64,000 nt of DNA from contig JAXHMZ010000001.1 in the NCBI GenBank assembly GCA_034521025.1, positions 15,921 to 79,920 on the forward strand. The letters are read 5' to 3'. This stretch comes from Candidatus Campbellbacteria bacterium. GTDB lineage: Bacteria; Patescibacteriota; Minisyncoccia; Phycocordibacterales; JAXHMZ01. A program made the position numbers and the translations under genes. Of this stretch, positions 933 to 15,921 are shown one piece after another. The notes under the pieces were generated by a model. The model saw only the letters and a program-made list of their open reading frames with translations. It made no database searches and had not been told where the DNA came from. How positions within the stretch are numbered: the stretch's first letter is position 1; each line of letters starts with the position of its first letter.

Positions 933-2129
933 TTATCGCTCTTCAAACCTTGCCTCTCCAATAAACACATCGTGTGACATATAGTCCCGATAGACGCCAA
1001 GTGCTTCTTGTGACGAGTTAACGCGTATATCGGTCCACTGGGCACACCCTTGATCTTCAGTCTCGTCATATACAACACAAAATTCTGATTGCCACCAACT
1101 AAGCGCTTTAAGTCTCGGATAACGTCCAGACACAATATCCTCAAAGAAATCTTCCATCCATTCAGGCTTACGCTCGTCTTCGGTTACTCCATATTCCATA
1201 AGTGCGATTGGTTTCTCTTCACTTATCATATTGGATTCCGTTATCTGTTGATATACATTGTCAAATGTGAGCGACATATCCCACCAAAAGTCGTTTTTGG
1301 GATTTTGTGATCCATAACAGCTTACTCCGATCCAATCAATATAGTCGTCACCCGGATAGTAGCCATCCACTGAAGCTTCCGGATTACCTATGTCAGAATC
1401 CCAAATGCAATTCACATGGTAAAACCAAGTGACATTTTGCACCCCTTCGTCTCTAAAAATATCTATGATGCGTCGATAGGCGTCTCGGAATCTTTCGTGT
1501 CCATCGTATAATTCGGGATCACCATATTCGGTTTTTTCCAATCCTCCGTTGTATCGCAAATTCCACGGAAACCAAAAACCATTAACTTCGACCCCGAAAG
1601 TCACGAGCAAAGGCGACGGAATCGACTTTGCCTCTCTCGCCCACGCACGAATCTCCTCGTCGAATTTCCCGTCAATGAAATTCTCTAGTTTATACTTTTC
1701 GTAGTCACTTGTTATGCAGCGATCGTAAGGAAACATCCTTATAGAAGGAATGTTGCCCGAACGAACCACTTTCTCTACATCATTTCTCGGAAAGTGTATT
1801 CCTCGATCAAAGAAGTTGCGTTGTCCATTCAAACATTCGTTTGCGACCCCTCTGGGGAACCAAGTATTTGTAACCGAAATCCAAGATATACCTTTCCCTA
1901 CCAAGTCCTCGTGCTCGGAAATAATAGAAGGGTCTGATATATTATTCCATCCGGAAAACGCGTCCGGGGACATGGCGTGATAGATCTTTCCCTCAACGGG
2001 AACTAACTTTGCGTTAGGATTGGCATCTTCTCCGGTTGCCTTTTCAAGCGATTCTTCAAAAGGAGAAACTGTCACGCTTAAAAACGCAATTACTCCAAAC
2101 ACAAAAAATCCAATAACAAACTTTTTCAT
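933..2129 (-). CDS. Secreted glycoside hydrolase, GH26 (mannanase)-like
   Basis: Signal/TM at N-terminus (MKKFVIGFFVFGVIAFLSV). GH26-like motifs WFPWN and YYPGDDYIDWIGVSCY. Start moved to the internal ATG at 2129 (MKKF...). Confidence 0.5.
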   Translation of the reverse strand: MKKFVIGFFVFGVIAFLSVTVSPFEESLEKATGEDANPNAKLVPVEGKIYHAMSPDAFSGWNNISDPSIISEHEDLVGKGISWISVTNTWFPRGVANECLNGQRNFFDRGIHFPRNDVEKVVRSGNIPSIRMFPYDRCITSDYEKYKLENFIDGKFDEEIRAWAREAKSIPSPLLVTFGVEVNGFWFPWNLRYNGGLEKTEYGDPELYDGHERFRDAYRRIIDIFRDEGVQNVTWFYHVNCIWDSDIGNPEASVDGYYPGDDYIDWIGVSCYGSQNPKNDFWWDMSLTFDNVYQQITESNMISEEKPIALMEYGVTEDERKPEWMEDFFEDIVSGRYPRLKALSWWQSEFCVVYDETEDQGCAQWTDIRVNSSQEALGVYRDYMSHDVFIGEARFEER

Positions 2130-2163
2130 AATATTAATTGTAGTATATATCAATTGATCGTAA

Positions 2164-2198
2164 GTATAAAAAAAGCGCCGGTTCCGAGGAACCGGCGC
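2164..2198 (-). terminator. Rho-independent terminator hairpin after the collagen-like gene
   Basis: GC-rich inverted repeat gcgccggttcc-gag-gaaccggcgc, flanked by A/T runs. Confidence 0.5.
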
Positions 2199-2222
2199 AA
2201 GGTACTACAGATCTTTGAGGGA

Positions 2223-3833
2223 TCAGTTTTGAGAAGGGCGATGAAACGCATTGAATGTAACTTGACACTCATCTCGGCCATCTGACACGGTCACGGAGAA
2301 GGTTGCATCGAGCGGCAAGCGCTCTTCATACCACCTGGTCTCCTTCTGACCTGGATTACTTGCCTCGGGGCCAGTATTCCAACCGTCCGGAAAGTCGTAG
2401 TCGACGATTCGAACCCCATCCGCATACGTGTAGACAGTCAATGACATGTCTCCCGTATAATTGCGATGGGTATTAACGGTCATCTCCTGCTGGTTGTTGT
2501 CGGTACCAGTACCGCCAGCACCACAGGTCCGTTGCCGAAGAGGACTGTCTGCGCGAACATCGTCGGGGAAGTCGTATGAGTCCACACGACCTTCTCGTAC
2601 CATTTCGCGCAATTCGTCGATTTGATCCTGCTGATCATCAAGACGACGCGTGTTGTCGGCAATGTCACGTTCGTTATTGCCGATCCGACGCTCGTGGTCG
2701 TCAAGTTGATCTTGCTGCCCATCGTGACCTGCACGCAGATCATCAAGCATTGCGTTGAACTGATCGACGTTTGCATCGTCGCCTGCGGGACCTTGAGGTC
2801 CGCGAGGACCTTCGGGGCCACGGGGACCTTCAGGGCCGGGCGGGCCTACTTGACCAACTTCGCCAGGAAAGCCTCGAGGTCCTCGGGGACCTTGTGGGCC
2901 CTCACAGTCGTCACTCTGTTCACAGTATGCAACTACATCTTGGTAGACTTCCTGCTTGATTTCATCGACTCGATGTTCAAGCTCTGCATGGGCCATCCAC
3001 AACGAGCCAATCTCGTCTCTCCACTCATCCCAATCTTCAGGAAACTCTCGAAGAGCTTCTTCAATCTGCAGTTGGAAGTCTTGACGAAGCTCGAGATCCG
3101 CGCGAAGTGCTTCCGCGGTGGCCGCGTCAATGTCACGGCCGACACTGTCTTCCAGATCAGCAATCGCACCCTCAAGCCGTACTTCTGCATTTTCGACGGC
3201 GCGATTTGCCTGCCGTTCGATGAGATCCTTAAGCATATCAGGATCTCCTGCAAATGATTCGATGGCAAGCGGACATCCGGGTCTCGTATGGGTGCCACCA
3301 AGGTGTACAATCTCAAGCATGATCCCGAGCAACCGAGCGGCAACATTTTCTACTTCACCGCGCGTCGCATACTCGCCGGTCTCAAAGCTAAGCTCATTGT
3401 CGTTTTCTTGGTCAACACGTCCCGTCGTCACCCCGCATGCGTGATTAAGCGCCACCGAAGGACGTTGTTCATAGGGAACTTCTTCCCAATCAACATAGTC
3501 CCAATCAGCGGGATGATCCGGAACTTCGACCACCTGACCGAATTCGAGCGTATCGGTGTCGCTGGTACCGTATTGAACAGTTGCGATGTTATGCCACTGA
3601 TCTAGCCACTGTTCCCACGACTCATCATCGCGGACGTTACTTGTGTCCCACATGAACTCATAGACGAGCTCACGCAGGTCAGCGTCAGTATCGAAAGACT
3701 GTTCGCTGTCCACGTGCTCCTGGCTCTGCGCGCTGTGTCCGTTGGCAAAAGCCGGCATATAGCCGATAATCGCCAGAACGACAAACACGAGAGTCAGACG
3801 AATTGTCCAACGTACCTTAGTGTCGTAAGTCAT
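2223..3833 (-). CDS. Membrane-anchored collagen-like repeat protein (Gly-X-Y triple-helix segment plus coiled-coil and a C-terminal domain)
   Basis: [42 protein letters not shown]. Start chosen at the ATG at 3833, which follows AGGAGG (tcccacaaggaggaaaaATG), rather than the longer upstream ORF. One TM ([22 protein letters not shown]). Confidence 0.6.
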
Positions 3834-4007
3834 TTTTCCTCCTTGTGGGATTGAATGGAACTTATCTGGCTTCGTCGGACGAGATTTCATTTTTCTCTCC
3901 CCTCTCTTCCCTTTCAAAGATCTGGCGATACTATATCACGTAATAGAAAAATGTCAACCTTTGTAAAGAGCTGACATTTAACTTTTTGTAATACAACTTT
4001 TCTTTTA

Positions 4008-5582
4008 TTAAGCAAGTGACGGTTGGACTACTTCTTTTACATTTACACTTGAAACATAGACCTCTTTTTCCGACTCCTCAACGGTTCGCTCGGTTTTATA
4101 CCATAACTGCGGTGTGTCCGGAGAACGATAATATTTGAAAGGCGCATAGAACCTAGGAATAGCCTGAACCACAAAGTGTACCGGAGTATATAGATACAGT
4201 ATTACTGACATTTTCAGGAGATACCCACGGCTCATCTTCTTGTCGTTATATGGTTCTATGTACTCCCTGAACATACGATACGTATAACCGTAAAAATCAA
4301 ATATAGTAATCGAGGCAAAAAGTAAATACAACATTACAAATTGAAAGCCTATGCTAAGTGCTCCATACGCTCCAACGACCATAAGAAACCAGCCTATTAC
4401 AGGCATTCCCAAGTGCCAAATTGAGCTATATGCGTTTGAGTATATTTTTAGAGTTAGATGGATCTTTCGGTACCACGGCAATTCTGATTCAACAACGTAA
4501 GGTATCAACTGAAAGTGTCCGCGTGCCCATCTTTCACGCTGTTTAAAATAAGTAGCATAGTTAGACGGCGACTGTTCGATCTCCGGACATGAGTACCATT
4601 CAGCCGTATGGCCAGTGAGAATATATGTCCGCAGACCAAGCTCGGCGTCTTCTACGAGTGAGCCGGCATCCCAACCACCAACGTGAAATAGAAGGTCTTT
4701 TTCAAAAAAGTAATTAGTACCAGCTAGGAAAAGAAGCTTCTTGTTCTTTCTCATGAGACGATGTGTCATAAAGCTCAAGTGGTGTACGACACCTTCGATA
4801 AAAGCTCCAATTCCGACTATGTTGAGATTCTTCATATTGGAAACTCCCAACACTATTCCTTGCAAGATCTTACTATTCTTCATCATTCGCAGAAAAGCGA
4901 TCTCCTTAAGAGAATCAACGTCTAGTCTTCCGTCCGCATCCAAAATTCCGATCATCTCTATATCTTCGTCATCTCCGGTGTAGCGAATATACTCGAGACA
5001 ATAGTTTAACGCGCGACCCTTTGTAGAGTGAGCATAAGTTTTTGTGAAATCTCCAAAGGTGCCAGAATACCACTCCGGAACCTCAACGCAGTTTACAAAC
5101 CCCGCCGGATAATTTTTCTGCAAGTCAAGTATAGTTTCTTTAGCGACTTCTTTTGTTGTGCGATCAACGTCATCGTACTTTTCACGTTCATCAACAATGA
5201 CGTAGATCTTATATGCGTCTTTTGGGTAATCCAATTCAGTAAGCCGTCTAATAGTGTTTTCTATAACACGGCCTTCATTACGAGCGGGAACGAAAACTGC
5301 AATTTTAGGGATATCACGACCTTTCATTGCAGAAACAGATATAATGTCTCGCATTGAGTAGACCTGCTTTTTCAACTTGGATTTATAATCATTCATAAAA
5401 TATACCCTGCGAAGGTATAGAAAACTACCAACAAAAAACACACCAATAGTTAGGTAGCTAAGTATCGTTATTATCTCTGAAGAAGAAAGTAGTATAAAAG
5501 TGAATAGCAAAATATCTACAGCAAGTATGATCTGTATCAAAAAAAGTATTCTATATAGATTTTTGTCCCAAAATTTTTTCAT
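4008..5582 (-). CDS. Processive family-2 glycosyltransferase (cellulose/chitin/PNAG-synthase-like), polytopic membrane protein
   Basis: GT2 motifs: VFVPARNEG...VIVDE, DADG, and QRERWARG (the QxxRW motif). Multiple TM helices at both ends. Confidence 0.7.
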   Translation of the reverse strand: MKKFWDKNLYRILFLIQIILAVDILLFTFILLSSSEIITILSYLTIGVFFVGSFLYLRRVYFMNDYKSKLKKQVYSMRDIISVSAMKGRDIPKIAVFVPARNEGRVIENTIRRLTELDYPKDAYKIYVIVDEREKYDDVDRTTKEVAKETILDLQKNYPAGFVNCVEVPEWYSGTFGDFTKTYAHSTKGRALNYCLEYIRYTGDDEDIEMIGILDADGRLDVDSLKEIAFLRMMKNSKILQGIVLGVSNMKNLNIVGIGAFIEGVVHHLSFMTHRLMRKNKKLLFLAGTNYFFEKDLLFHVGGWDAGSLVEDAELGLRTYILTGHTAEWYSCPEIEQSPSNYATYFKQRERWARGHFQLIPYVVESELPWYRKIHLTLKIYSNAYSSIWHLGMPVIGWFLMVVGAYGALSIGFQFVMLYLLFASITIFDFYGYTYRMFREYIEPYNDKKMSRGYLLKMSVILYLYTPVHFVVQAIPRFYAPFKYYRSPDTPQLWYKTERTVEESEKEVYVSSVNVKEVVQPSLA

Positions 5583-5629
5583 ATTTCTAGGTTTTGTAAC
5601 TATACCATTTATTTTACTTATGTCAATAG

Positions 5630-5662
5630 AAAAACCCCTGCCGTTTTACCAGCAGGGGCTCA
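5630..5662 (-). terminator. Rho-independent terminator after the acidic lipoprotein gene
   Basis: Hairpin cccctgccg-tttta-ccagcagggg followed by a T-run on the minus strand. Confidence 0.45.
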
Positions 5663-5679
5663 ATGATCAAGGAACTAGG

Positions 5680-7515
5680 TTAGCGAGGTTCTACGTCAAT
5701 CACACAACGTGTTTCTTCTCCGTCGTCGACTCTAAGGTCAACAATGGCATCGGTGGTTTTTGTGCAATTATCGCCGGTAACTGAATCGACAACAAAGTCT
5801 TGGTTGTCGTCGAGCACCGCCCGATAATTGTTTTCTTCCACAAAAACCTTTTCACCGTCTTCGATGTCGCGAGAGATCAATTCTCCGCTTGATCGTTCGT
5901 AGACAGTAAAGGAAACGGCACGATCAATCTCAAAAACGTAATTACCTAAGCTGGAGCCACTCTCTCCCCCCACCAAGTCAAACCTGATGGTCTCAACATC
6001 CCTGTCGTCATCGCGTTCAACTTCCAGACGCACAACAACTTCACCGTCATCGTAGTCTGAGAACGAGATGTACTTGGAATGAGACTCGCGGGTGGATGAG
6101 TAGATCTCGAGATCGTCAACACGGATGGTCAGTTCGGCGTCATCCGCCGAAGAGACAGCTCCCCAATTGACCGAGAAGCCCTTGCCGTCGTCGACATCGA
6201 CATCGTCGTTGTCACGAACGTGACTTCCATCAGAGTCGGTCACGTTCAAGTAATCGATGAGGTTGGGATCAGAATCGTGATCCTCAAACTCAAAGTACAA
6301 GACGCAGTCAACGGTCTCTCCTTCATCCACATTAACGCGGATACGGAAGTCATTGACCTTGGTGCAGTCTTGCCTGACCCTGTCGAGGTCGTAGCCAAGG
6401 TTGGAAGGAGCGTTAATGTAATAACGACCTTCATTTACCCTAGCTCGATCACCGTCACGGTAGGTATCAACGTACGCGCCATCTGAGGCTTCTAGCTCTA
6501 GCGGAAAATCTTCCGGTTCGAGGTCGCCTCCGGTCACGCGAACGTCAAAATCGATCCGACCGGATCCATTTGAAGGATCACTTCCCCCCACCAAGTCAAA
6601 CCTGATGGTCTCAACATCCCTGTCGTCATCGCGTTCAACTTCCAGACGCACAACAACTTCACCGTCATCGTAGTCTGAGAACGAGATGTACTTGGAATGA
6701 GACTCGCGGGTGGACGAGTAGATCCTGTGACCGTCAACACGGATGGTCAGTTCGGCGTCATCCGCCGAAGAGACAGCTCCCCAATTGACCGAGAAGCCCT
6801 TGCCGTCGTCGACATCGACATCGTCGTTGTCACGAACGTGACTTCCATCAGAGTCGGTCACGTTCAAGTAATCGATGAGGTTGGGGTCATTGTTCCCGGT
6901 ATCATTGTCCTCATCATCGTTATGGTCGTCGTTGTCGTCTCCGCCGTGGTCACTGTTTCCATCGTCGCCGTCGTCATCGCCACTGTCATCGTTACCGCCG
7001 TCGGTATCCTTATCGCTGTCGTTATCGCCATTATCGTCGTCTTGACTTCCAACGTTAACAACGATCTCAATCGGCGAGCCGGATCTGTTGTTGCCTGACT
7101 TGTCGCTCAGGTAGAGCACAAAATGGTACTCTCCCGACCTTTGCGGCGTCCAATTGAACGTTTCTACGGACTCTTGGTCTCCGAAGTTGTGCGTATGCAC
7201 AACCGGGAGATCGCTCACATCCGTATCGGTCGTATTCCACTCACCAAGCTCAACCCGATAAGTACCGCGAACGTATCCATAGACAATGGTAAGTTCTTCA
7301 CCGATGTCCACGTCAGCCCTAGAGCGAGCATCAGCCCAGCTCCAGGTACGGTCTTGGTTGTCCTGATAAGTAGAATTATCAACTGCGACTAGGAAGGCTT
7401 GGGGGGTTACAGCGTTTTCACCGCTGTTGCCGTCTTTTGGTTGCTGATTCAGTTGAGTACAAGCCCCAAGAAACAGCAATACAAACGGCACCAATAGCAA
7501 ACCGATCTTTTTCAT
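5680..7515 (-). CDS. Highly acidic secreted lipoprotein with an internal tandem duplication and a poly-D/N/G low-complexity tract
   Basis: Lipobox LLFLGAC. DDDNGDNDSDKDTDGGNDDSGDDDGDDGNSDHGGDDNDDHNDDEDNDTGNND tract. Two near-identical segments of about 110 aa (DPNLIDYLNVTDSDGSHVRDNDDVDVDDGKGFSVNWGAVSSADDAELTIRVD...RFDLVGG). Confidence 0.5.
   Translation of the reverse strand: MKKIGLLLVPFVLLFLGACTQLNQQPKDGNSGENAVTPQAFLVAVDNSTYQDNQDRTWSWADARSRADVDIGEELTIVYGYVRGTYRVELGEWNTTDTDVSDLPVVHTHNFGDQESVETFNWTPQRSGEYHFVLYLSDKSGNNRSGSPIEIVVNVGSQDDDNGDNDSDKDTDGGNDDSGDDDGDDGNSDHGGDDNDDHNDDEDNDTGNNDPNLIDYLNVTDSDGSHVRDNDDVDVDDGKGFSVNWGAVSSADDAELTIRVDGHRIYSSTRESHSKYISFSDYDDGEVVVRLEVERDDDRDVETIRFDLVGGSDPSNGSGRIDFDVRVTGGDLEPEDFPLELEASDGAYVDTYRDGDRARVNEGRYYINAPSNLGYDLDRVRQDCTKVNDFRIRVNVDEGETVDCVLYFEFEDHDSDPNLIDYLNVTDSDGSHVRDNDDVDVDDGKGFSVNWGAVSSADDAELTIRVDDLEIYSSTRESHSKYISFSDYDDGEVVVRLEVERDDDRDVETIRFDLVGGESGSSLGNYVFEIDRAVSFTVYERSSGELISRDIEDGEKVFVEENNYRAVLDDNQDFVVDSVTGDNCTKTTDAIVDLRVDDGEETRCVIDVEPR
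5966..6888. repeat. Intragenic direct repeat: two copies of about 300 bp, >95% identical, offset exactly 600 bp (about 5966-6268 and 6585-6888)
   Basis: gagactcgcgggtgga[tc]gagtagatc... occurs at 6101 and 6701, and the long flanking sequence is identical. Confidence 0.8.
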
Positions 7516-7703
7516 TTTTCCCTCCTTGGGATTTTGAAAGACTTAGGTTGAGTTCGTTTTGAGTAGCCGTCGTTACTTGCTCCTCTCTCGCTTAACCGAA
7601 GTTCCGCGGATATTTATATCATAAAATATTGATTTGTCAATATTTTTGTGGTACTGTAAAGATTCAAATTGCTATTTGAGAATAACGTCTTTAGAATGAA
7701 AAT

Positions 7704-9215
7704 ATGCCTAAAGTAAAAGAACTATTACACGAGATGCCGAACAATATGAGCAAAGAGGACGAGGAATTGGTCCGACGCGCTTTTGCTTTTTCAGAAAAAG
7801 CCCACGAGGGACAAGAACGATACTCGGGAGAGCCATATTTTATACACTCCTTTGAAACAGCAAAAATTCTCGCAAGTATCAATATGAGCGCGGTTACTGT
7901 GGCAGCAGGTATTTTGCATGATGTTATGGAAGATTCCGATGTTAGTGAGGAAGAGCTAAAGGAAGAGTTCGGGGCTGAGATCGTTTTTCTAGTAGACGGA
8001 GTAACAAAGCTGGGTAAGCTCCGGTTTCAAGGCCTCACTCGCCATGCCGAAAGTCTGCGCAAGTTTTTTATAGCTACTTCAAAAGATATTAGGGTGGTCA
8101 TAATAAAACTAGCTGACCGTCTACACAATATGCACACACTTGAACACGTACCAGAACACAAACGCAAAAGAATAGCTCAGGAAACGCTCGAGATATACGC
8201 TCCACTGGCCTACAGACTGGGAATACGTAAATTAACAAAAGAGCTTGAGGATCTGGCTTTTCCTTATGTATATCCCGAGGAAGCTGAGAAAACCCAGAAA
8301 ATACTCCAAGAACGAGAGAAAGACGCAAACGCCTACGTTCAAAAAGTGTATAAGCTTTTAAAGAAAAAATTGGCCGAAAACGGTTACCGTAACGCTAAAA
8401 CCGAATTTAGAACCAAAGGGGTCTACAGTTTGTATAAGAAACTCATCCGCAAAGATATGGACGTAGAAAGAATTCACGATCTGGCGGCTATACGAGTAAT
8501 AGTACCAACCGTAGCGGATTGTTATGCCGTACTCGGGATCATTCATGGCACTTGGAGACCCTTGCCAGGGCGCGTAAAGGATTATATTGCTTTTGAAAAG
8601 CCCAACGGATACCAATCCATACATACCGATATATTTACCGGCGATGGCGGTATTGTGGAAATGCAGATACGCACCGAAGAGATGCACCGAGAAGCAGAAT
8701 TTGGAATCGCAAGCCACCTGTCTTACAAACAGGGATTCAGAGGAAATGCCGTCAATCCGAACTTATTGTGGCTACGCCAACTGCTACCACGCAGTTATTC
8801 TCGTGAAAAAACCGAAACCGAAGAATGGACGCGCGATGTTCCTAGCTGGGTCAAAGAATTAAATGAGTATCAGGAAGAAGCTTACGGATATGAATTTTTA
8901 GACAACCTCAAGAGTGACTTTATGAAACACAGAATTTTTGTGTTTACTCCAAAAGGAGAAGTGGTCGATCTTCCTAAAGATTCAACACCCGTAGACTTTG
9001 CTTATTCCATACACTCAGATATAGGAGATCATATGAGTAGCGCCAAGGTAAACGGCAAGATGTCGTCACTTTCCACACCCCTACAAAACGGCGACATAGT
9101 AGAAATAACGACCAAAAAATCCGCGCAACCCAATCGTAAGTGGCTTGACTTCGTAAAGACCGCCCTAGCTAAGCGTCACATAAAGCTTTTCTTGCAAAAA
9201 GGAGAAAGTAAATAA
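7704..9215 (+). CDS. rel: RelA/SpoT-homolog (p)ppGpp synthetase/hydrolase (HD, synthetase and TGS domains; no ACT domain)
   Basis: HD motif ILHDVMEDS. Synthetase motif YIAFEKPNGYQSIHTDI. TGS region FVFTPKGEVVDLPKDSTPVDFAYSIHSDIG. Confidence 0.85.
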   Translation: MPKVKELLHEMPNNMSKEDEELVRRAFAFSEKAHEGQERYSGEPYFIHSFETAKILASINMSAVTVAAGILHDVMEDSDVSEEELKEEFGAEIVFLVDGVTKLGKLRFQGLTRHAESLRKFFIATSKDIRVVIIKLADRLHNMHTLEHVPEHKRKRIAQETLEIYAPLAYRLGIRKLTKELEDLAFPYVYPEEAEKTQKILQEREKDANAYVQKVYKLLKKKLAENGYRNAKTEFRTKGVYSLYKKLIRKDMDVERIHDLAAIRVIVPTVADCYAVLGIIHGTWRPLPGRVKDYIAFEKPNGYQSIHTDIFTGDGGIVEMQIRTEEMHREAEFGIASHLSYKQGFRGNAVNPNLLWLRQLLPRSYSREKTETEEWTRDVPSWVKELNEYQEEAYGYEFLDNLKSDFMKHRIFVFTPKGEVVDLPKDSTPVDFAYSIHSDIGDHMSSAKVNGKMSSLSTPLQNGDIVEITTKKSAQPNRKWLDFVKTALAKRHIKLFLQKGESK

Positions 9216-9216
9216 A

Positions 9217-10485
9217 CTATATATTAAAATTGGAGATCGAATATAGCTCGTCGTCGTTATCATCTTCCTTTTTATCTTCGGAATCACTTTCTTGTGTTAG
9301 ATCCGGTTCTTCTTCTGTACTTTCGCTTTCCTCCTCGCCATGACTAACTTCTGCTCCGTAGGTCGGGATATCCGCGGCAGGGGCTGTGTCTTCCCTTTTT
9401 TCCTCTCGTGTATTCAAGTAAGAACTCCAATCGTATTGGGGTGTTTTATTCGCTTCTTCTTCGGAACCGCTTTCCGTTTGTTTCACTTCCTCGTCAGATT
9501 CATTGCTTTTCTCAAACGACTGTGGTTCAGAGTATATGTTTTCTTCACGCGACTCTTCGGTTCCAGTTTCTTCTGGCTCTTCTTTAGTTTCGGGTTGTGA
9601 CGCTTGTTGAGAATTAATAAAGCGGCTTAGCATATCGTACTTTTCAGCGGAATTTTGCGCCGAAGAAGATAGTAAAGTGATTATATTTTTTACATCCTCG
9701 GGAGAGAAAAAGTCTATCATTATTTTGCCACCGTTTTCGCGAGATTCAATTTGCACTCGCGTACCGAGCGATTCTGAAAGTTTACCTTCTAGCTCTACAA
9801 GCTCTGGGTCTACTCTGCGATCCTTTTTGCGCACTTTATCGTGCGCTATTCTGCGAGCTATTGATTCAGTTTCGCGAACACTGAGATTTTTGTACACAAC
9901 CTCTTTAAAGACGGTGGCTAATTCATCTGGCTTGTCACTAAGCATCATTAGTGTACGGGCGTGCCCTTCCGATATTTTGCTACCGGCAACCGCCTCTCTG
10001 ATCTCTTCAGGCAAGGTCAATAATCTGAGAGTGTTTGATACGTACTCACGCGACTTTCCAACTTTCTTTCCAACCTCACTGTGCTTGAGTTTAAACTCTT
10101 CTACTAATCGGTTGAAAGCTACTGCTCGATCGATCGGGTTAAGATCTTCTCGTTGAATATTTTCTATGATCGCCAGCTCAAGCTTGAGAAGAGAATCTTC
10201 TTCGCCGCTTTTGATTATCACCGGCACTTGGCCCAGGTTCGCCATTCTAGCTGCGCGCAAACGTCTTTCACCGGCGATAAGTTCATACTCGGTAGATATG
10301 CCCCCATCAGACTTCTCTACTTCGCTTCGCGTTACCACGAGCGGCTGCAAAACACCATACTGTCGCACCGATTCAGATAGGCTCTGCAGCTTTTCCTCAT
10401 CAAATTCCTTTCTGGGTTGATGTGGATTGGTTTTTATTTTTCCGACTTCGATCCAAAAAATTGAGTTCCCTTGAAAATATGACAT
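9217..10485 (-). CDS. parB: ParB-like chromosome partition protein with a long acidic/Ser-rich C-terminal tail
   Basis: GERRLRAARMANL ParB box and an HTH region. Roughly 130-aa E/D/S-rich tail. Confidence 0.75.
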   Translation of the reverse strand: MSYFQGNSIFWIEVGKIKTNPHQPRKEFDEEKLQSLSESVRQYGVLQPLVVTRSEVEKSDGGISTEYELIAGERRLRAARMANLGQVPVIIKSGEEDSLLKLELAIIENIQREDLNPIDRAVAFNRLVEEFKLKHSEVGKKVGKSREYVSNTLRLLTLPEEIREAVAGSKISEGHARTLMMLSDKPDELATVFKEVVYKNLSVRETESIARRIAHDKVRKKDRRVDPELVELEGKLSESLGTRVQIESRENGGKIMIDFFSPEDVKNIITLLSSSAQNSAEKYDMLSRFINSQQASQPETKEEPEETGTEESREENIYSEPQSFEKSNESDEEVKQTESGSEEEANKTPQYDWSSYLNTREEKREDTAPAADIPTYGAEVSHGEEESESTEEEPDLTQESDSEDKKEDDNDDELYSISNFNI

Positions 10486-10592
10486 TGCCTGTATTGTTCG
10501 TTATTTAGCACAGTATATCACACACAAGTATTTGACTTTATAAACACTCTTTGTTTTATTTGAAATGGAGGTCAAAGGAGAGGAGTGAAAAT

Positions 10593-10790
10593 ATGAGTAT
10601 AGAAGGAGAGTTATTCACCCTATGCGGAAGAGACACTGAGGAAGTCCGAGATCTAGTAGAGGACCTAAGGAGCAAAGACCTTAACATTTGTTTTTGGAAG
10701 GAAGATCGGTCTGAGCCAATACTCTACCACCAAGGGTGGCAAGAGCCCATCATTGGACACAGCCGCATTTGCAATAAGTTCGGGGTATAG
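10593..10790 (+). CDS. Hypothetical small protein (66 aa)
   Basis: Strong RBS aaaggagaggagtgaaaatATG. A terminator follows. Confidence 0.35.
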   Translation: MSIEGELFTLCGRDTEEVRDLVEDLRSKDLNICFWKEDRSEPILYHQGWQEPIIGHSRICNKFGV

Positions 10791-10837
10791 AACGTCCGAT
10801 TCCACGATCCTAGATAGTTCCTTTCTTCGCAGAAGCC

Positions 10838-10870
10838 AGAGGCCGCACAAGCGGCCTCTTTATTATGAAA
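10838..10870 (+). terminator. Rho-independent terminator
   Basis: gaggccgcacaagcggcctc followed by TTTATT. Confidence 0.55.
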
Positions 10871-10914
10871 CATTGATTTAAGAAGACATAAATTATAGAC
10901 TTTTAGAGAAAGAT

Positions 10915-10997
10915 GCCGGAGTGGCGGAATTGGTAGACGCGCACGACTCAAAATCGTGTTCCTTCGGGAGTGGGAGTTCGATTCTCCCCTCCGGCAC
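10915..10997 (+). tRNA. tRNA-Leu(CAA), type II, no encoded CCA
   Basis: Hand fold: acceptor GCCGGAG/CTCCGGC, anticodon stem CACGA/TCGTG, loop CTCAAAA, long variable arm, T-loop TTCGATT. Confidence 0.8.
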
Positions 10998-11400
10998 TAC
11001 GAACAGAGTGAGTTGAGGCGGAGAGCGGGCAAACTGCTTTGCCCGTGTGAGAGAAGCGAAAGACGGAGTATATTGCGAGCGAAGCGGAGCAATTCGAGTC
11101 GGGGTCGCGAGGCTGCCGAAGGCAGAACTTGTGACCGATTCTCCCCTCCGGCACTACGAACAGAGTGAGTTGAGGCGGAGAGCGGGCAAACTGCTTTGCC
11201 CGTGTGAGAGAAGCGAAAGACGGAGTATATTGCGAGCGAAGCGGAGCAATTCGAGTCGGGGTCGCGAGGCTGCCGAAGGCAGAACTTGTGACCGATTCTC
11301 CCCTCCGGCACCAGAGCAAAGTGAGTTGAGGCGGAGAGCGGGCAAACTGCTTTGCCCGTGTGAGAGAAGCGAAAGACGGTGAGTTGAACCGGAATTGGGC
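10998..11400 (+). repeat. tRNA-3'-end-associated modular repeat array, about 2.7 units, period 150 bp; each unit ends in ...GACCGATTCTCCCCTCCGGCAC (tRNA-Leu 3' mimic)
   Basis: Unit cgattctcccctccggcactACGAACAGAGTGAGttgaggcggagagcgggcaaactgctttgcccgtgtgagagaagcgaaagacgg... is repeated at 10977, 11127 and 11277. Confidence 0.85.
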
Positions 11401-11442
11401 GCAAATAAATGCTTCAATCTATAGATTGAAGCATTTATTTGC
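11401..11442. repeat. Perfect 42-nt palindrome containing the core aaatgcttcaatctatagattgaagcattt (a second copy of the core is at 40381-40414)
   Basis: gcaaataaatgcttcaatcta|tagattgaagcatttatttgc. The 30-nt core is identical at both sites. Confidence 0.85.
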
Positions 11443-11474
11443 TACTATTTCTCGTATAAACATGCATTTAATTT

Positions 11475-12362
11475 ATGAAAGATAAGATTTTGGCTATCGT
11501 TGGACCTACGGCCGTAGGGAAAAGTAACTTGGCAGTGAACCTGGCTCTTGAATTTAATGGCGAAGTAATTTCCGCCGATTCTCGTCAGATCTACAAAGGA
11601 CTAGACATTGGAACCGGGAAGATAACCGAGGGAGAGAAAAAGGAAGTGACCCATTATATGATCGATATAGCCGACCCCAGAGAGCAATACACTGTAGCAG
11701 AGTGGAAAAATAACACCGAAAAGATCATATCCGAAGTTCTATCCAAGGACAGACTGCCGATCATTTGCGGAGGCACTGGTCAGTATATAGAAGCTATAGT
11801 AGATAATATTTCATATCCAAACGTCCCTCCTAACTACGAACTGCGAGATAAACTTCAAGATAAAAGTCCGGAAAAGCTTTTTGCAATACTAATGTCCAAA
11901 GACGAAGATCGCGCGAATACGATAGATAGAAATAACCCACGCCGAATTATACGCGCCATTGAAATAGCAGAATCTATTGGAAAAGTGCCGCCACTCGAAA
12001 GTGATCCTAAATACAATGCTCTTCAGATCGGTCTGTACCTGCCACGCGAGAAGCTGAAAAACCGTATAAAAAATAGATTGGAATCGCGCCTAGAGATAGG
12101 AATGGTCGAAGAAGCCAAAAAAATTCACAGCAATGGCATATCGTACAAACGAATGGATGAACTGGGATTAGAGTATCGCTACTTGGCAAAATACCTGCAA
12201 AACGAAATGACATACGAAGAAATGAAGGAGAAGCTAGAAACAGAAATATACCAATATTCAGTACGTCAACTACGTTGGTTCCGGCGCGATAATAGAATCA
12301 AGTGGTTCACTCCGGAAGAAAACGATCAAATCCAAGAGGAGGTGCGCAAATTTTTAACGTAA
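11475..12362 (+). CDS. miaA: tRNA dimethylallyltransferase
   Basis: P-loop GPTAVGKS. Overall MiaA-like (DSRQIYKGLDIGTGKIT). Confidence 0.85.
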   Translation: MKDKILAIVGPTAVGKSNLAVNLALEFNGEVISADSRQIYKGLDIGTGKITEGEKKEVTHYMIDIADPREQYTVAEWKNNTEKIISEVLSKDRLPIICGGTGQYIEAIVDNISYPNVPPNYELRDKLQDKSPEKLFAILMSKDEDRANTIDRNNPRRIIRAIEIAESIGKVPPLESDPKYNALQIGLYLPREKLKNRIKNRLESRLEIGMVEEAKKIHSNGISYKRMDELGLEYRYLAKYLQNEMTYEEMKEKLETEIYQYSVRQLRWFRRDNRIKWFTPEENDQIQEEVRKFLT

Positions 12363-12393
12363 AAAGCCCCGCGGTATATATACCGCGGGGCTA
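12363..12393. terminator. Bidirectional terminator between convergent genes
   Basis: aaaagccccgcggtatatataccgcggggct. Confidence 0.55.
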
Positions 12394-12435
12394 GAGGTTT
12401 CATCACCTCCTTATCAAAAAACTAAAGGAAGACGG

Positions 12436-14328
12436 TTAGTCACACAGTGTCCAGCCGTGTAAGTAGTCGAGTTTCCTATTGCCGTATCGCACCTCACCAT
12501 CAAAGTGATGGATAATGGTGTGTCCGACAAACAGGTCTGCCTGCCAACCGTGGTTATTGCCCTGTTGTTCAGACACATCACACGGTGGGTACCCGATGAT
12601 CGTCATCTCAGCCGGACCATTTTCGTCCGCTGGAGCAATCTCTCCGGTCCAGGAGGTTGAAGGCTCCTGATGATCGAGAGCACCAGACTGATCGTGCTTG
12701 TAGTAGATCGCCCAACCGAAGTTGTAGCAATCTTCTTCTGATGTGTTGGTGACAGTGAACTCAAGACTGCCATCGGGAAGCTCGGTGATAGTACCGGTGA
12801 GACCGGTAGCATCATCAGCACTCGTGGGATCAACGCATACTAGCGTCTCACCGTCTTTGCCATCCTGGCCATCTTCTCCGTCTTCGCCATCCTGACCGTC
12901 TTCACCGTCGGCTCCGTCGCAAACGTACCAAGTACCTGTTACTTCGGAGTTGTCGAGGATGCCGTTGCGGTTGTTGTCAAGACCAACTTCAACCCTAACA
13001 CCACCGTTTTCACAGTTCTCTCCCGAAGAAACGCTTGTAGTGTCGACGAGAGTAGTGAATCCATCTTCGCCGTCCTCGCCATCTTCTCCGTCTTCCGGGT
13101 AACCAATGAAAACTGTTTCGGTGACTTCAGACTCTTCGAGCGTATCGTTGCGATTGGAGTCGAGGCCAAAGTAGAGAGTTACACCCTCTTCTCCGAACTC
13201 AACGTCAACAAGTACGTTGTAACCGTCTTCGCCATCTTCACCGTCTTCGCCGTCCTGACCGTCTTCGCCATCGCTGGGACGGCAGAAGCGCACACTTTGC
13301 TCGACTTCGCTTTCTTCAAGCTCGCCGTTGCGGTTGGTGTCGAGACCGGTCTCGAAGAGTACGCCACCGTTGCGACAGATGTCGCCAGGATGGATCTCTA
13401 CGACGTCGACTAGACTATTGTATCCGTCTTCGCCGTCCTGACCGTCCTCACCATCTTCGCCATCTTCACCGTCTTCGCCGTCCCGACCGTCTTCACCGTC
13501 GACTCCGTCGCAAACGTAAGTAACATCAGTTACTTCGCTTTCGTCCAGAACCGTATCACGGTCAGTATCCAGGCCAACGCTTACTCGCGTACCTCCATTC
13601 GGACATTCTTGTGATTCTTCGATGGGCGTGGTGTCAATTAAAGCTGTATGCCCATCTTCACCGTCTTCGCCATCGGCACCATCTTCACCGTCTTCACCGT
13701 CTTCGGGGAACGGAATAAAGATGGTTTCTGTTACCTCCGAATCATCGAGCTCGCCGTTGCGGTTAGTGTCGAGACCAAGCTCTACTGTAACGCCATCTGA
13801 TTCAAAAATGACGTTAAACAGAACGCTGAGTCCGTCTTCGCCGTCCTCACCGTCGGCACCATCTCGACCGTCTCTGCCATCTTCACCGTCCTCGCCGTCG
13901 ACACCATCTCTGCCGTCTTCGCCATCCTCACCGTCTTCGCCATCCTCACCGTCGCGAGGGATAACCAGAACGTCTACGACACAGTGCGCTTGACTGTTAA
14001 GGTAGTTATACGTTTCGTATGTAAACGTATACGTACCATCGGGCAGACAATCGCCAGTCCAGCTGGAAACGCCGACAGCTCTTGCCTGCTCTGCTACTGT
14101 CACACGCGTCCGTGTGGTTCCGGGTGTGAGCTCGTAGGTAAGCTGTGAGCCATGGTCTTCGACCGGCTCAATTACGTTTCCGGATTCATCCAGAAGCGCA
14201 AGCTCGATCCCAGTGGCGCCGTCCGGCGCAGAATACTCTACTTCAAGAGTATTAACAGGCATCGGACGACTACAAGCCGCCAGCAGTAACGCTAGAAAGA
14301 CCGCTGAAAGTATGTAAAGCTTTTTCAC
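12436..14328 (-). CDS. Acidic surface lipoprotein with (Gly-Glu/Arg-Asp)n collagen-like triplet runs alternating with EF-hand-type Ca-binding loops
   Basis: Start set to GTG at 14328 after AGGGGAGG (MKKLYILSAVFLALLLAACS lipobox). Triplet run GEDGEDGEDGEDGRDGVDGEDGEDGRDGRDGADGEDGEDG. Five or more loops of the form DTNRNGELDDSE (D-x-N-x-N-G-x-L-D-x-x-E). Confidence 0.55.
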   Translation of the reverse strand: MKKLYILSAVFLALLLAACSRPMPVNTLEVEYSAPDGATGIELALLDESGNVIEPVEDHGSQLTYELTPGTTRTRVTVAEQARAVGVSSWTGDCLPDGTYTFTYETYNYLNSQAHCVVDVLVIPRDGEDGEDGEDGEDGRDGVDGEDGEDGRDGRDGADGEDGEDGLSVLFNVIFESDGVTVELGLDTNRNGELDDSEVTETIFIPFPEDGEDGEDGADGEDGEDGHTALIDTTPIEESQECPNGGTRVSVGLDTDRDTVLDESEVTDVTYVCDGVDGEDGRDGEDGEDGEDGEDGQDGEDGYNSLVDVVEIHPGDICRNGGVLFETGLDTNRNGELEESEVEQSVRFCRPSDGEDGQDGEDGEDGEDGYNVLVDVEFGEEGVTLYFGLDSNRNDTLEESEVTETVFIGYPEDGEDGEDGEDGFTTLVDTTSVSSGENCENGGVRVEVGLDNNRNGILDNSEVTGTWYVCDGADGEDGQDGEDGEDGQDGKDGETLVCVDPTSADDATGLTGTITELPDGSLEFTVTNTSEEDCYNFGWAIYYKHDQSGALDHQEPSTSWTGEIAPADENGPAEMTIIGYPPCDVSEQQGNNHGWQADLFVGHTIIHHFDGEVRYGNRKLDYLHGWTLCD

Positions 14329-14341
14329 TGGCCTCCCCTTT

Positions 14342-15529
14342 CTAGAAGTGGACATTTACACCAACGCCCAATTCGAGATCCGTCTCCCTGGGATCGGTGA
14401 TCGTATCGAATTGATTACTCAAACCGATCTCAGTAAAGGGACGGAAAACTTCGGTCGCTTCAAACTCCAAGCCGGCAAACATCACTCCCGCAAAACCGTT
14501 GCGAGGCTCGTCAAACGAGCCTTCCTGCGCACCGAACTGGTAGAACAATCCGCCACCTGCGTAGGGGTTGGCACTACCTGCCACATAGGGCCAGAACAGC
14601 ACATCAACTCCGACGCCAAACATCATGGCTTCTACTCCGCCGGCTCTGTTCAGAGACAAGTGACCGCGCACGCCAAGCCCTTCTTCGCTCGACGAAAGCA
14701 AGCCAGTATCTCCAACGTGAAGGTTTAGCGCAAGTGGAGAAATTCCGCCAACGGAAGCACCAACGTATGTGGTAGACGGACGATCAGGGGTGGTATACAC
14801 CACCTCCGTTACGCCATCTTCACCCGCTGGTCCACGTGGGCCTTCTGGTCCTTGTTCTCCAGTTTCGCCTTGCGGACCGGCAGGTCCTTGTGAACCTGCT
14901 TCACCGCGAGGACCGGGCTCGCCTTGCGAACCTTCCAGACCTTGTTCTCCACGGGGACCAATGTCACCTTGCTCGCCCGGCAGACCCATAGGGCCAGCCA
15001 GACCTTGTTCTCCGTCTTCGCCTTGCGGGCCCTGTGGTCCGACTTCGCCGCGAGGACCTCGGATATTACCAAGCTCTCGCATCTCACCGTCCGTGTACGT
15101 AATCGAGAGGTTGCCCTCTTCATCGAGGTAAACACTCTCTATTCCGCGTCCGGGCTCCCCTTCGGGGCCTTGCGGACCGGCGGGGCCTTGTGGGCCTGCT
15201 TCACCGCTTTCTCCCTCAGGACCCCGAGGACCTTGCGGGCCTTCGGTTTGTGGCAAGCATTCTGATTCCAGAATGCGAGCAATGACGACAAACGCCTCGT
15301 TACGCGTCAGGCTATCCCGACCGCGAATTGTAAACGTACCTTCGTCGCCGACAATGACGTTGCACTCAACCGCTCGGTTAAGCGCTTCGCGCGCCCAATC
15401 GACCACCGATTCCATATCGGTGAATACTTCGGGTGCTGGATGTGCCGCCCCGATAGGCGGCTCCGAATCTTGTGCCTGCGCAATAGGGATAACGAAGAGT
15501 AGGAAAAGCGCAAAACAAAACTTTTTCAC
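14342..15529 (-). CDS. SLH-domain protein with collagen-like Gly-X-Y repeats and a C-terminal domain ending in F
   Basis: GTG start after AGGAGAAG. Signal peptide. SLH-like segment [85 protein letters not shown] and further GLxGxxGxxG runs. C-terminus ...GVGVNVHF. Confidence 0.55.
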
Positions 15530-15656
15530 CGTCTTCTCCTTTCAAGAAATTTCTAGTTATAGGGCGAATATTTGTATGACTATTTCCTCCTTTCTGTAAA
15601 GAGCTTCAAAACAAAAAATACTAACAATTTAGGGTTTTGTCAATTTATGATCTGCT

Positions 15657-15849
15657 ATAATTGTTCGCTTTCTCGCTCCCTTCACTCACGCTGTTCGTTG
15701 CGGGTCCGAGCCGGGACTCGAATCTTACAGATTCGGTACAGATCTCGTATCGTGCTCGCAAAGCTGCGCGCGATTAACTCGATCTTTTCTCGTCCTGGCG
15801 AAAGCGAAATTGTTCGCTTTCTCGCTCCCTTCACTCACGCTGTTCGTTG
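15657..15849 (-). repeat. tRNA-3'-end-associated repeat: one 151-nt unit plus a partial second unit; the unit ends in GATTCGAGTCCCGGCTCGGACCCGCA (tRNA-Trp 3' mimic)
   Basis: aattgttcgctttctcgctcccttcactcacgctgttcgttgcgggtcc occurs at 15657 and 15808. The minus-strand left end is ACGAACAGCGTGAG. Confidence 0.8.
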
Positions 15850-15921
15850 CGGGTCCAGCAGGACTCGAACCTGCAGTCCTGGTTTTGGAGACCAGTGGTT
15901 TGCCAATTAACCGATAGACCC
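15850..15921 (-). tRNA. tRNA-Trp(CCA)
   Basis: Acceptor GGGTCTA/TGGACCC, anticodon stem CTGGT/ACCAG, loop CTCCAAA. Confidence 0.75.

Follow-up and report, generated by a model that had tools for sequence, protein, structure and literature searches.

Collagen-Like Repeat Genes of a Campbellbacteria Chromosome: Two Envelope Gene Sets and a Candidate SLH-Anchored Tether

Three Genes Encoding Gly-X-Y Repeat Proteins

The DNA stretch analyzed here, 64,000 nucleotides from a "Candidatus Campbellbacteria" bacterium (assembly GCA_034521025.1, contig JAXHMZ010000001.1, positions 15,921 to 79,920; hereafter, the window), carries three minus-strand genes, designated A, B, and C, whose products contain runs of the collagen-type repeat Gly-X-Y. 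The best-supported reading of the region is that it holds two independent envelope gene sets in the chromosome of a member of the candidate phyla radiation (CPR), with gene A in one set and genes C and B in the other. The genes are located as follows (coordinates without the stop codon in parentheses):

2223–3833 (2226–3833), minus strand: gene A, 536 residues, ATG start at 3833
12436–14328 (12439–14328), minus strand: gene B, 630 residues, GTG start at 14328
14342–15529 (14345–15529), minus strand: gene C, 395 residues, GTG start at 15529

A first-pass annotation of the window had reported three collagen-like open reading frames (ORFs) here and had quoted peptides from them, including GEDGEDGRDG and the C-terminal GVNVHF. 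The frames are present on the minus strand, and all of the quoted peptides were recovered; for gene A, a longer TTG-initiated frame extends to 3917. The search for a collagen domain that the annotation had proposed gave scores above the gathering score of the Pfam family PF01391 (Collagen; 27.2 bits) for all three proteins, namely 32.7 bits for A, 66.6 for B, and 67.6 for C. Protein A has one uninterrupted Gly-X-Y run of 14 triplets (29% proline), and C has uninterrupted runs of 11 and 28 triplets (24 and 15% proline, respectively). Six runs of 4–14 triplets, 48 triplets in total, were found in B; they contain 0% proline and 50–57% charged residues. The longest run in 5000 shuffles of each protein was 5–7 triplets, compared with the observed 14 in A, 14 in B, and 28 in C.

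Composition makes a triple helix plausible for the Gly-X-Y regions of A and C, which combine 15–29% proline with mixed charges. The triplets of B are mostly acidic only and lack proline, and a triple helix is implausible for them by composition unless counter-ions are present. All three proteins are strongly acidic, with net charges of about −70 (A), −138 (B), and −39 (C). Each appears to be secreted and to consist of an anchor, a stalk, and a C-terminal domain, so that "surface fibers" is a fair description of them. No extra copies of their three novel domains were found in the window or in any fetched locus.

Collagen repeats are common in phage tail fibers, and many tail-fiber families of the PHROG database matched the proteins, with E-values down to 1e-29. 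However, nearly all of these matches centered on the Gly-X-Y stretches. In addition, no phage genes lie nearby, the neighbors being relA, parB, miaA, dcd, and clpB; exact peptide-pattern scans of the viral contig collection gave no relatives of the non-collagen domains; and the signal peptides of the proteins are of the Sec and lipoprotein types. An interpretation of the three genes as phage tail-fiber genes or prophage remnants is extremely improbable, and it was rejected on the grounds that the PHROG matches lie on Gly-X-Y and that no viral relatives of the other domains were found by these pattern scans.

Host Organism and Division Into Two Units

The GyrA protein encoded in the window is 83% identical to that of a "Candidatus Paceibacterota" metagenome-assembled genome (MAG) and 62–69% identical to those of about 80 other CPR genomes; the top 80 matches all belong to Patescibacteria. 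Identical copies of GyrA, ClpB, and the acidic lipoprotein encoded near gene A are recorded for a 93-kb NCBI contig of a "Candidatus Campbellbacteria bacterium" MAG. This agrees with the assignment of the DNA to a CPR organism at first pass. Housekeeping genes of the window have CPR-typical short forms, for example, a 508-residue IF-2. Among the window genes annotated, none for outer-membrane biogenesis and none for CsaB was seen. The closest genome comes from "Lejia," which we take to be Laguna Lejía, a saline lake in the Atacama. If so, this would suggest a salt-adapted lineage, which could also explain the GED-rich linkers.

The genes relA and parB, a tRNA gene, and miaA separate the cluster of gene A from genes C and B. 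The A cluster is syntenic in another CPR contig (L083), and the C–B pair recurs without A on a further contig (L001/L002). The co-located trio that the annotation had treated as one unit is therefore better described as two. In the comparison of neighborhoods that it had recommended, the A cluster was kept in the CPR contig, and the C–B pair was found elsewhere only on a Thermus-like contig.

Gene C: SLH-Like Domain, Collagen Stalk, and Predicted Barrel

The following features were distinguished in gene C:

15473–15529, minus strand: signal peptide, residues 1–19, cleavage at AQA/QD
15263–15424, minus strand: single divergent S-layer homology (SLH)-like domain, residues 36–89, with TRNE replacing the TRAE motif
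15143–15241, minus strand: collagen run 1, 11 Gly-X-Y triplets, inside the Pfam Collagen match
15059–15142, minus strand: interruption module, 28 residues, three short strands
14807–15058, minus strand: collagen run 2, 28 triplets; best stretch of the Pfam Collagen match at residues 185–240
14345–14806, minus strand: C-terminal domain, residues 242–395 (154 residues), predicted eight-stranded up-and-down β-barrel

The GTG start is preceded by an AAAGGAG Shine-Dalgarno sequence. A HMMER search of 1.84e9 representative proteins returned one true relative, P0001, and one repeat artefact; an exact-sequence look-up returned no identical protein. P0001 has the same architecture and is 53% identical to C overall and 46% identical in the C-terminal domain. 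The signal peptide, read from the sequence, is kept in P0001, as is the interruption module, which is present there in two copies.

The profile of the mature N-terminal domain (A3) matched the SLH domain of Deinococcus radiodurans SlpA in the PDB (7zgx residues 33–83) with an E-value of 8.3e-6 over 53 columns, and the alignment pairs the TRNE of C with the TRYE of SlpA. The T-R-x-E motif is also kept between C and P0001. The match of the profile to the stalk of Veillonella OmpM1 (8bz2) was weak (E 0.28), and that of the domain to the SLH domain of Bacillus anthracis Sap had an E-value of about 0.01. A scan of metagenomes with the N-domain alignment gave no match, which is a weak negative, since this type of scan needs an exact peptide-pattern match. 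We regard the N-terminal domain as one SLH domain of divergent sequence. The 39 triplets behind it, at about 0.86 nm each (about 34 nm), together with the small β module would give a stalk about 35 nm long. A single-sequence AlphaFold2 (AF2) model of full-length C had a predicted local distance difference test score (pLDDT) of 40 overall, and only the interruption module reached 66–78.

The sequence of the C-terminal domain suggests eight strands, amphipathic and with a polar face rich in glycine, and its last residue is aromatic. AF2 run on a two-sequence alignment (A2) produced a model of moderate confidence (pLDDT 69.1, predicted TM-score 0.62) with eight antiparallel strands of 8–15 residues. 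A Foldseek search of the PDB with this model gave 26 matches at E ≤ 1e-3 (E from 2e-6, TM-score 0.35–0.68), all of them outer-membrane barrels, including the OprF N-domain, NspA, OmpA, OmpX, Ail, PagL, OmpW, Thermus TtoA, and designed transmembrane barrels. Against BFVD, a collection of predicted viral structures, the named top matches were phage-encoded outer-membrane protein (OMP) barrels with TM-scores of up to 0.76; the rest were unnamed. The domain is thus probably an eight-stranded outer-membrane-type β-barrel. Of the two folds suggested for it at first pass, C1q-like and β-barrel, only the latter was predicted. A C1q/TNF-like head was rejected for C, as none was present among the Foldseek matches and the topology is that of an eight-strand meander barrel; the fold matches included no tail-fiber head or Scl V-domain either. 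There was no match to the Pfam families OMP_b-brl or OmpA, and a word-index homology search with the domain returned nothing. Its alignment was also not found in GTDB genomes, JGI metagenomes, or viral contigs by exact peptide-pattern scans, again a weak negative.

Gene B and the C–B Operon

Gene B and the signals that bound the pair have the following features:

14272–14328, minus strand: lipoprotein signal peptide of B, lipobox LLAAC with Cys19; weak NCBIfam lipoprotein match
12844–13950, minus strand: repeat array of B, six proline-free acidic G-E/x-D runs alternating with five DUF7151 modules
12439–12843, minus strand: C-terminal domain of B, 135 residues, Cys-containing, no Pfam match, not in the L001 homologue
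15615–15643, minus strand: promoter-like site upstream of C, TTGACA, 17-nt spacer, TATTTT; 10 of 12 consensus positions, a consensus match only
12365–12392, minus strand: terminator hairpin after B, 12-bp stem with 9 G–C pairs and a T run, shared with the convergent miaA

The listed ATG of B at 14355 overlaps C. B is likely to start at the GTG at 14328, which has a GGAGG Shine-Dalgarno sequence upstream and lies 13 nt after the TAG stop of C. From this codon, the protein begins MKKLYILSAVFLALLLAAC, a lipoprotein signal with a lipobox. The promoter-like site, the 13-nt gap, and the terminator make C and B look like a two-gene operon in which the start of B is coupled to C.

Five copies of PF23657 (DUF7151) were detected in B above the gathering score (197.7 bits, E 2e-59). 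Each of the five modules contains, by pattern match, an EF-hand-like loop, e.g., DTNRNGELDDSE, and these loops may bind Ca2+. More than 412 relatives were found at E < 1e-10, several of them named "DUF7151 family protein" and several carrying precomputed EF-hand Pfam matches; the named relatives belong to Myxococcota, Ekhidna (Bacteroidota), Nitrospirae, and "Deltaproteobacteria." In the relatives, the modules are also separated by short Gly-X-Y linkers of 3–8 triplets; therefore, the "collagen" signal of B is a trait of the DUF7151 family. B had been taken at first pass for a classic collagen-like protein, a description that does not fit a proline-free DUF7151 member whose Gly-X-Y linkers are part of the family repeat unit. 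B shares with the family the five modules, the short Gly-X-Y linkers, and the combination of a conserved array with a variable C-terminal domain, and it differs in its longer linkers (up to 14 triplets), their purely acidic GED composition, its location in a CPR genome, and its coupling to gene C. To our knowledge, the DUF7151 family has no known function, and we found no mention of it in the literature searched.

Several repeats were observed around the pair. Two perfect 49-nt direct repeats (15659–15707 and 15808–15856) lie just upstream of C and overlap the 3′ end of a tRNA-Trp gene (15849–15921, minus strand); there is no third copy in the window and none on the miaA side bounding the C–B pair. 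A 157-nt unit is present in two perfect tandem copies (10979–11135 and 11136–11292) and a partial third (11314–11379) that is 97% identical. This array, within 10915–11379, begins inside the 3′ end of tRNA-Leu(caa) (10915–10997). The motif CGAACAG[AC]GTGAGT..GA[AG]GG occurs in both the tRNA-Trp and the tRNA-Leu repeats and is oriented alike with respect to the tRNA. In addition, a 30-nt palindrome with a perfect junction, 87% complementary arms, and no spacer is located at 11392–11451, just upstream of miaA.

Gene A and Its Cluster

The features of gene A and its surroundings are as follows:

3324–3518, minus strand: region of A resembling the SLH-like domain of C, residues 106–170, HPAxW...TRGE...AARLL
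2775–2900, minus strand: collagen run of A, 14 triplets, preceded by CEQSDDC (2904–2924)
933–7515, minus strand: context of A, comprising an acidic repeat lipoprotein gene (5680–7515), GT2 (4008–5582), A, and a GH26-like hydrolase gene (933–2153)

Protein A has a signal peptide with cleavage at AFA/NG, followed by the region resembling an SLH-like domain, two helix-prone segments that flank the collagen run, and a variable C-terminal domain. A search for homologues returned only P0003 (45% identity) and P0004 (34%; alignment A4); the position of the collagen run is kept in both, and its length varies. Comparison of residues 106–170 with the N-terminal domain of C by hhalign (A5 against A3) gave a probability of 80% and an E-value of 1.4e-5 over 60 columns. 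There was no direct SLH match for A in Pfam or the PDB, and an SLH-like domain is assigned to it tentatively. The segments flanking the collagen run are poor in proline and glycine, charged, and gave weak matches of the Rad50/SMC type only, from which a coiled coil may be inferred. The alignment of the A family had no match in viral contigs by exact peptide-pattern scan (a weak negative).

GT2 encodes a multi-pass membrane glycosyltransferase (Pfam Glyco_trans_2_3). On the CPR contig L083 (5100–9646), the order ParB, RelA, unknown protein, GT2, A-like protein, GH26 mirrors that of the window (933–5582). A is read as a secreted fiber that belongs to this conserved GT2–A–GH26 cluster of the polysaccharide type, which looks like a synthase-type exopolysaccharide cluster.

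The gene at 5680–7515 (minus strand) encodes an extremely acidic lipoprotein of 611 residues with the lipobox LFLGAC (NCBI MDZ7725983.1, "hypothetical protein") and no family match. It contains a near-identical internal duplication of about 100 residues (DPNLIDYLNVTDSDGSHVRDNDD...RFDLVGG) and a linker rich in Asp, Gly, and Asn, and it occupies the position of the 503-residue unknown ORF in L083.

Origin of the C–B Pair

The only other C–B pair found is that of L001/L002, where a C-like gene and a gene for a DUF7151 lipoprotein have 4 nt in common. The lipoprotein encoded on L001 has 871 residues, the LLAAC lipobox as in B, and a homologous N-domain and repeat array (E 4e-44); its C-terminus, unlike that of B, is made up of cadherin-like/Big_9 domains. 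At three other DUF7151 loci, no C-like neighbor was found. The N-terminal half of GyrB from L001 scored 495 bits against Thermus thermophilus and about 340 bits against Escherichia coli and others. Its TopA (964 residues, four Toprim_C_rpt repeats) shares only 43% identity with the one encoded on the CPR contig L083, and the GC content of L001 is uniform at 0.54–0.59, the C–B homologues included. We consider that L001 probably comes from a diderm of the Deinococcus–Thermus kind. Since the only other pair lies on a Thermus-like contig and the B family occurs mostly in diderm phyla, the C–B pair has probably been exchanged horizontally, in one direction or the other, with a diderm Terrabacteria lineage.

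Two further observations concern such loci. Next to the C–B homologues, L001 carries a 329-residue ORF (7791–8780, minus strand) with a signal peptide, 13% glycine, and the end ...LKLSYGWSF, which is OMP-like and had no Pfam or PDB sequence match. On an unrelated metagenome contig (L087 4710–8582, L088), a DUF7151 gene is followed after 28 nt by a gene for an OmpA-family protein of 539 residues with a barrel-like N-terminus, a Pro-rich linker, and an OmpA_C domain. This single example may represent a second pairing of DUF7151 with a wall-binding barrel.

An alternative is that C and B are foreign genes without a role in the CPR cell, either a decaying remnant of diderm origin or an assembly chimera. 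The occurrence of the only homologous pair on a Thermus-like contig, the mostly diderm distribution of the B family, and the nearby perfect repeats (49 and 157 nt) at the 3′ ends of tRNA genes are in line with this. So is the G+C content at third codon positions (GC3), whose excess, controlled for amino-acid composition, exceeds the housekeeping expectation in both genes (z 5.2 for B and 3.7 for C, compared with −1.8 to 3.4 for housekeeping genes). However, A (z 3.6) and the acidic lipoprotein gene (z 7.5, the largest excess in the region), which are syntenic within CPR, are equally shifted, and toward miaA the pair is not bordered by any copy of the repeats. Neither ORF is disrupted, and signal peptides, Shine-Dalgarno sites, a promoter-like site, and a terminator accompany them. 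To the left and right of the pair, the 93-kb NCBI contig continues with CPR housekeeping genes, and the 53% identity between C and P0001 speaks against a recent mix-up with the DNA of that organism. The foreign-gene explanation is therefore a distinctly poor one in our estimation.

Proposed Function

The overall interpretation, to which we assign a probability of about 0.55, is that the region contains two gene sets and that C, whose gene is coupled to that of a DUF7151 lipoprotein, is a tether in the style of OmpM/SlpA in which the stalk is collagen and the barrel minimal. According to this model, C would be exported through its cleaved signal peptide and would most likely trimerize via the Pro-rich collagen segments of 11 and 28 triplets. 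In the trimer, the single SLH-like domains of the three chains would combine to form the wall-binding head, as in OmpM and SlpA, and the collagen triple helix would take the place of the coiled coil. Since collagen, too, is obligately trimeric, one SLH domain per chain makes structural sense here. At the end of each chain would sit a small eight-stranded outer-membrane-type barrel, a minimal barrel replacing the porin. B would probably act as a lipid-anchored, Ca2+-stiffened stalk presenting a variable C-terminal domain.

A number of results weigh against this interpretation. The SLH domain that the first-pass annotation had assigned to C is borne out by its similarity to SlpA and stays below the threshold in Pfam: with a gathering score of 20.8 bits for PF00395, C reached 13.5 bits as a whole protein and 17.2 with the N-domain alone, and P0001 reached 18.7. 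The barrel fold rests on one AF2 model from a two-sequence alignment, with a pLDDT of 69, and the other four models of the domain scored 29–58. Sequence searches of Pfam, NCBIfam, and the PDB with the C-terminal domain gave no match up to E 10. C ends in a canonical aromatic β-signal, and P0001 has the non-aromatic end IGLAVHLEVLQ. An autonomous triple helix is unlikely in the Pro-free runs of B, with their charge of about −2 per triplet, and a crude heptad-periodicity test on the helix-prone segments of A was not significant. The placing of L001 as Thermus-like is based on the similarity of two proteins, with no phylogeny, and GC3 gives no specific evidence for transfer of C–B, since A and the acidic lipoprotein gene share the shift. 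We know of no BAM machinery in CPR. Finally, the literature describes CPR as monoderm, with SLH, CsaB, and OmpM lost in the group (bioRxiv 10.1101/2021.05.31.446380); a barrel held away from the wall by an anchored stalk thus has no obvious membrane to enter there. By contrast, SLH proteins have been reported in Absconditicoccaceae (PMC13059738).

The lack of an outer membrane for the barrel in a monoderm CPR also favors a view close to that of the first pass, namely that all three proteins are ordinary surface fibers of the BclA/Scl type that form a coat or host-attachment structure, with C anchored by SLH and bearing a soluble head, the barrel being a modeling artefact. It is consistent with the collagen matches in A, B, and C, the signal peptides, the strong acidity and variable C-terminal domains, the SLH-like domain of C, and the only moderate confidence of the AF2 model. 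On the other hand, no C1q/TNF-like head, Scl V-domain, or other soluble head was found, and the named top fold matches in two libraries were outer-membrane barrels. The proteins have no LPXTG, and the Scl/Lcl models of NCBIfam gave 105 against a cut-off of 325. Moreover, the trio is not kept as a unit, and B is a DUF7151 protein rather than a classic collagen protein. We regard ordinary fibers as an unlikely, though serious, explanation of the locus.

If C is a tether as proposed, its barrel would have to sit in an outer lipid layer or in the membrane of a host, or else serve some purpose outside membranes. In one scenario, the SLH-like trimer would sit in the cell's own wall, and a collagen stalk of about 35 nm would carry three self-inserting barrels into the outer membrane of a diderm host in the manner of a grappling hook. 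The host would possibly be the Thermus/Deinococcus-like donor of C–B, and the cells would be stapled together with B as a Ca2+-stiffened co-adhesin. This scenario is speculative, and we think it improbable. The same weight is given to the alternative that this CPR lineage may possess an unrecognized outer lipid layer, tethered in the OmpM style. OmpM/SlpA-type tethers are thought to be the ancestral Terrabacteria link of the outer membrane to the wall.

If the tether interpretation is true, the trimeric stalk of such proteins can be collagen and not only a coiled coil, and outer-membrane-type barrels may persist in, or be imported into, a supposedly monoderm episymbiont. Which membrane holds the barrel, an unrecognized outer layer or that of the host, would then become a testable question. 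C is a concrete candidate for studies of host contact in Paceibacteria and the first genomic partner for the uncharacterized DUF7151 family. What would be new is the use of unfamiliar parts in an established tether layout, in a host where it was not expected; the two-member family and the moderate-confidence fold limit the weight of this.

Comparison With Known Systems

Proteins A and C share with Scl1/Scl2, BclA, Legionella Lcl, and phage tail fibers the Pro- and charge-rich Gly-X-Y repeats and the succession of anchor, stalk, and terminal domain. The NCBIfam models of Scl and Lcl align with the repeat region only (37–105 bits, compared with cut-offs of 325–400). Unlike in Scl and BclA, LPXTG is absent from A, B, and C, and neither a C1q-like nor a V domain is present. 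Here, the repeat runs of 14–39 triplets are short, an SLH-like domain serves as the anchor, and the terminal domain is predicted to form a barrel of the membrane type. OmpA and OprF, the top structural matches, resemble C in uniting a small eight-stranded barrel and a wall-binding domain in one chain. In C, however, the two domains come in the opposite order, binding to the wall would rely on an SLH-like domain instead of OmpA_C, and a long collagen stalk separates the two in what is presumably a trimer.

The closest parallels are found in OmpM of Veillonella and Selenomonas and SlpA of Deinococcus and Thermus. In OmpM, the wall-binding unit is assembled from the SLH domains of three chains (PMC10628300), and the outer-membrane barrel of SlpA is reached across the periplasm by a trimeric coiled coil about 28 nm long (PMC9388160). 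The word "collagen" is absent from both of these structural papers, and the combination of collagen-like repeats, SLH, and an outer membrane was not found in the literature searched. Like OmpM and SlpA, C starts with a signal peptide and a single SLH-type domain in each chain, continues with an elongated stalk, and is predicted to finish in a barrel; the SLH domain of SlpA is the best match of its N-terminal domain among solved structures. The stalk of OmpM and SlpA is obligately trimeric, as that of C presumably is, and the length of that of SlpA, about 28 nm, is similar to the roughly 35 nm estimated for C. However, their stalk is an α-helical coiled coil, whereas that of C consists of Gly-X-Y repeats, and their barrels have 16–30 strands, compared with the predicted 8 strands (about 150 residues) in C, with no sequence similarity between the barrels. 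OmpM and SlpA also belong to diderms with an outer membrane, whereas the host of C is a CPR bacterium, a group reported to lack the outer membrane, OmpM, and CsaB. Thus, with no coiled coil, eight strands, and no barrel homology, C is not a member of the OmpM/SlpA family, yet it shares the layout of these proteins.

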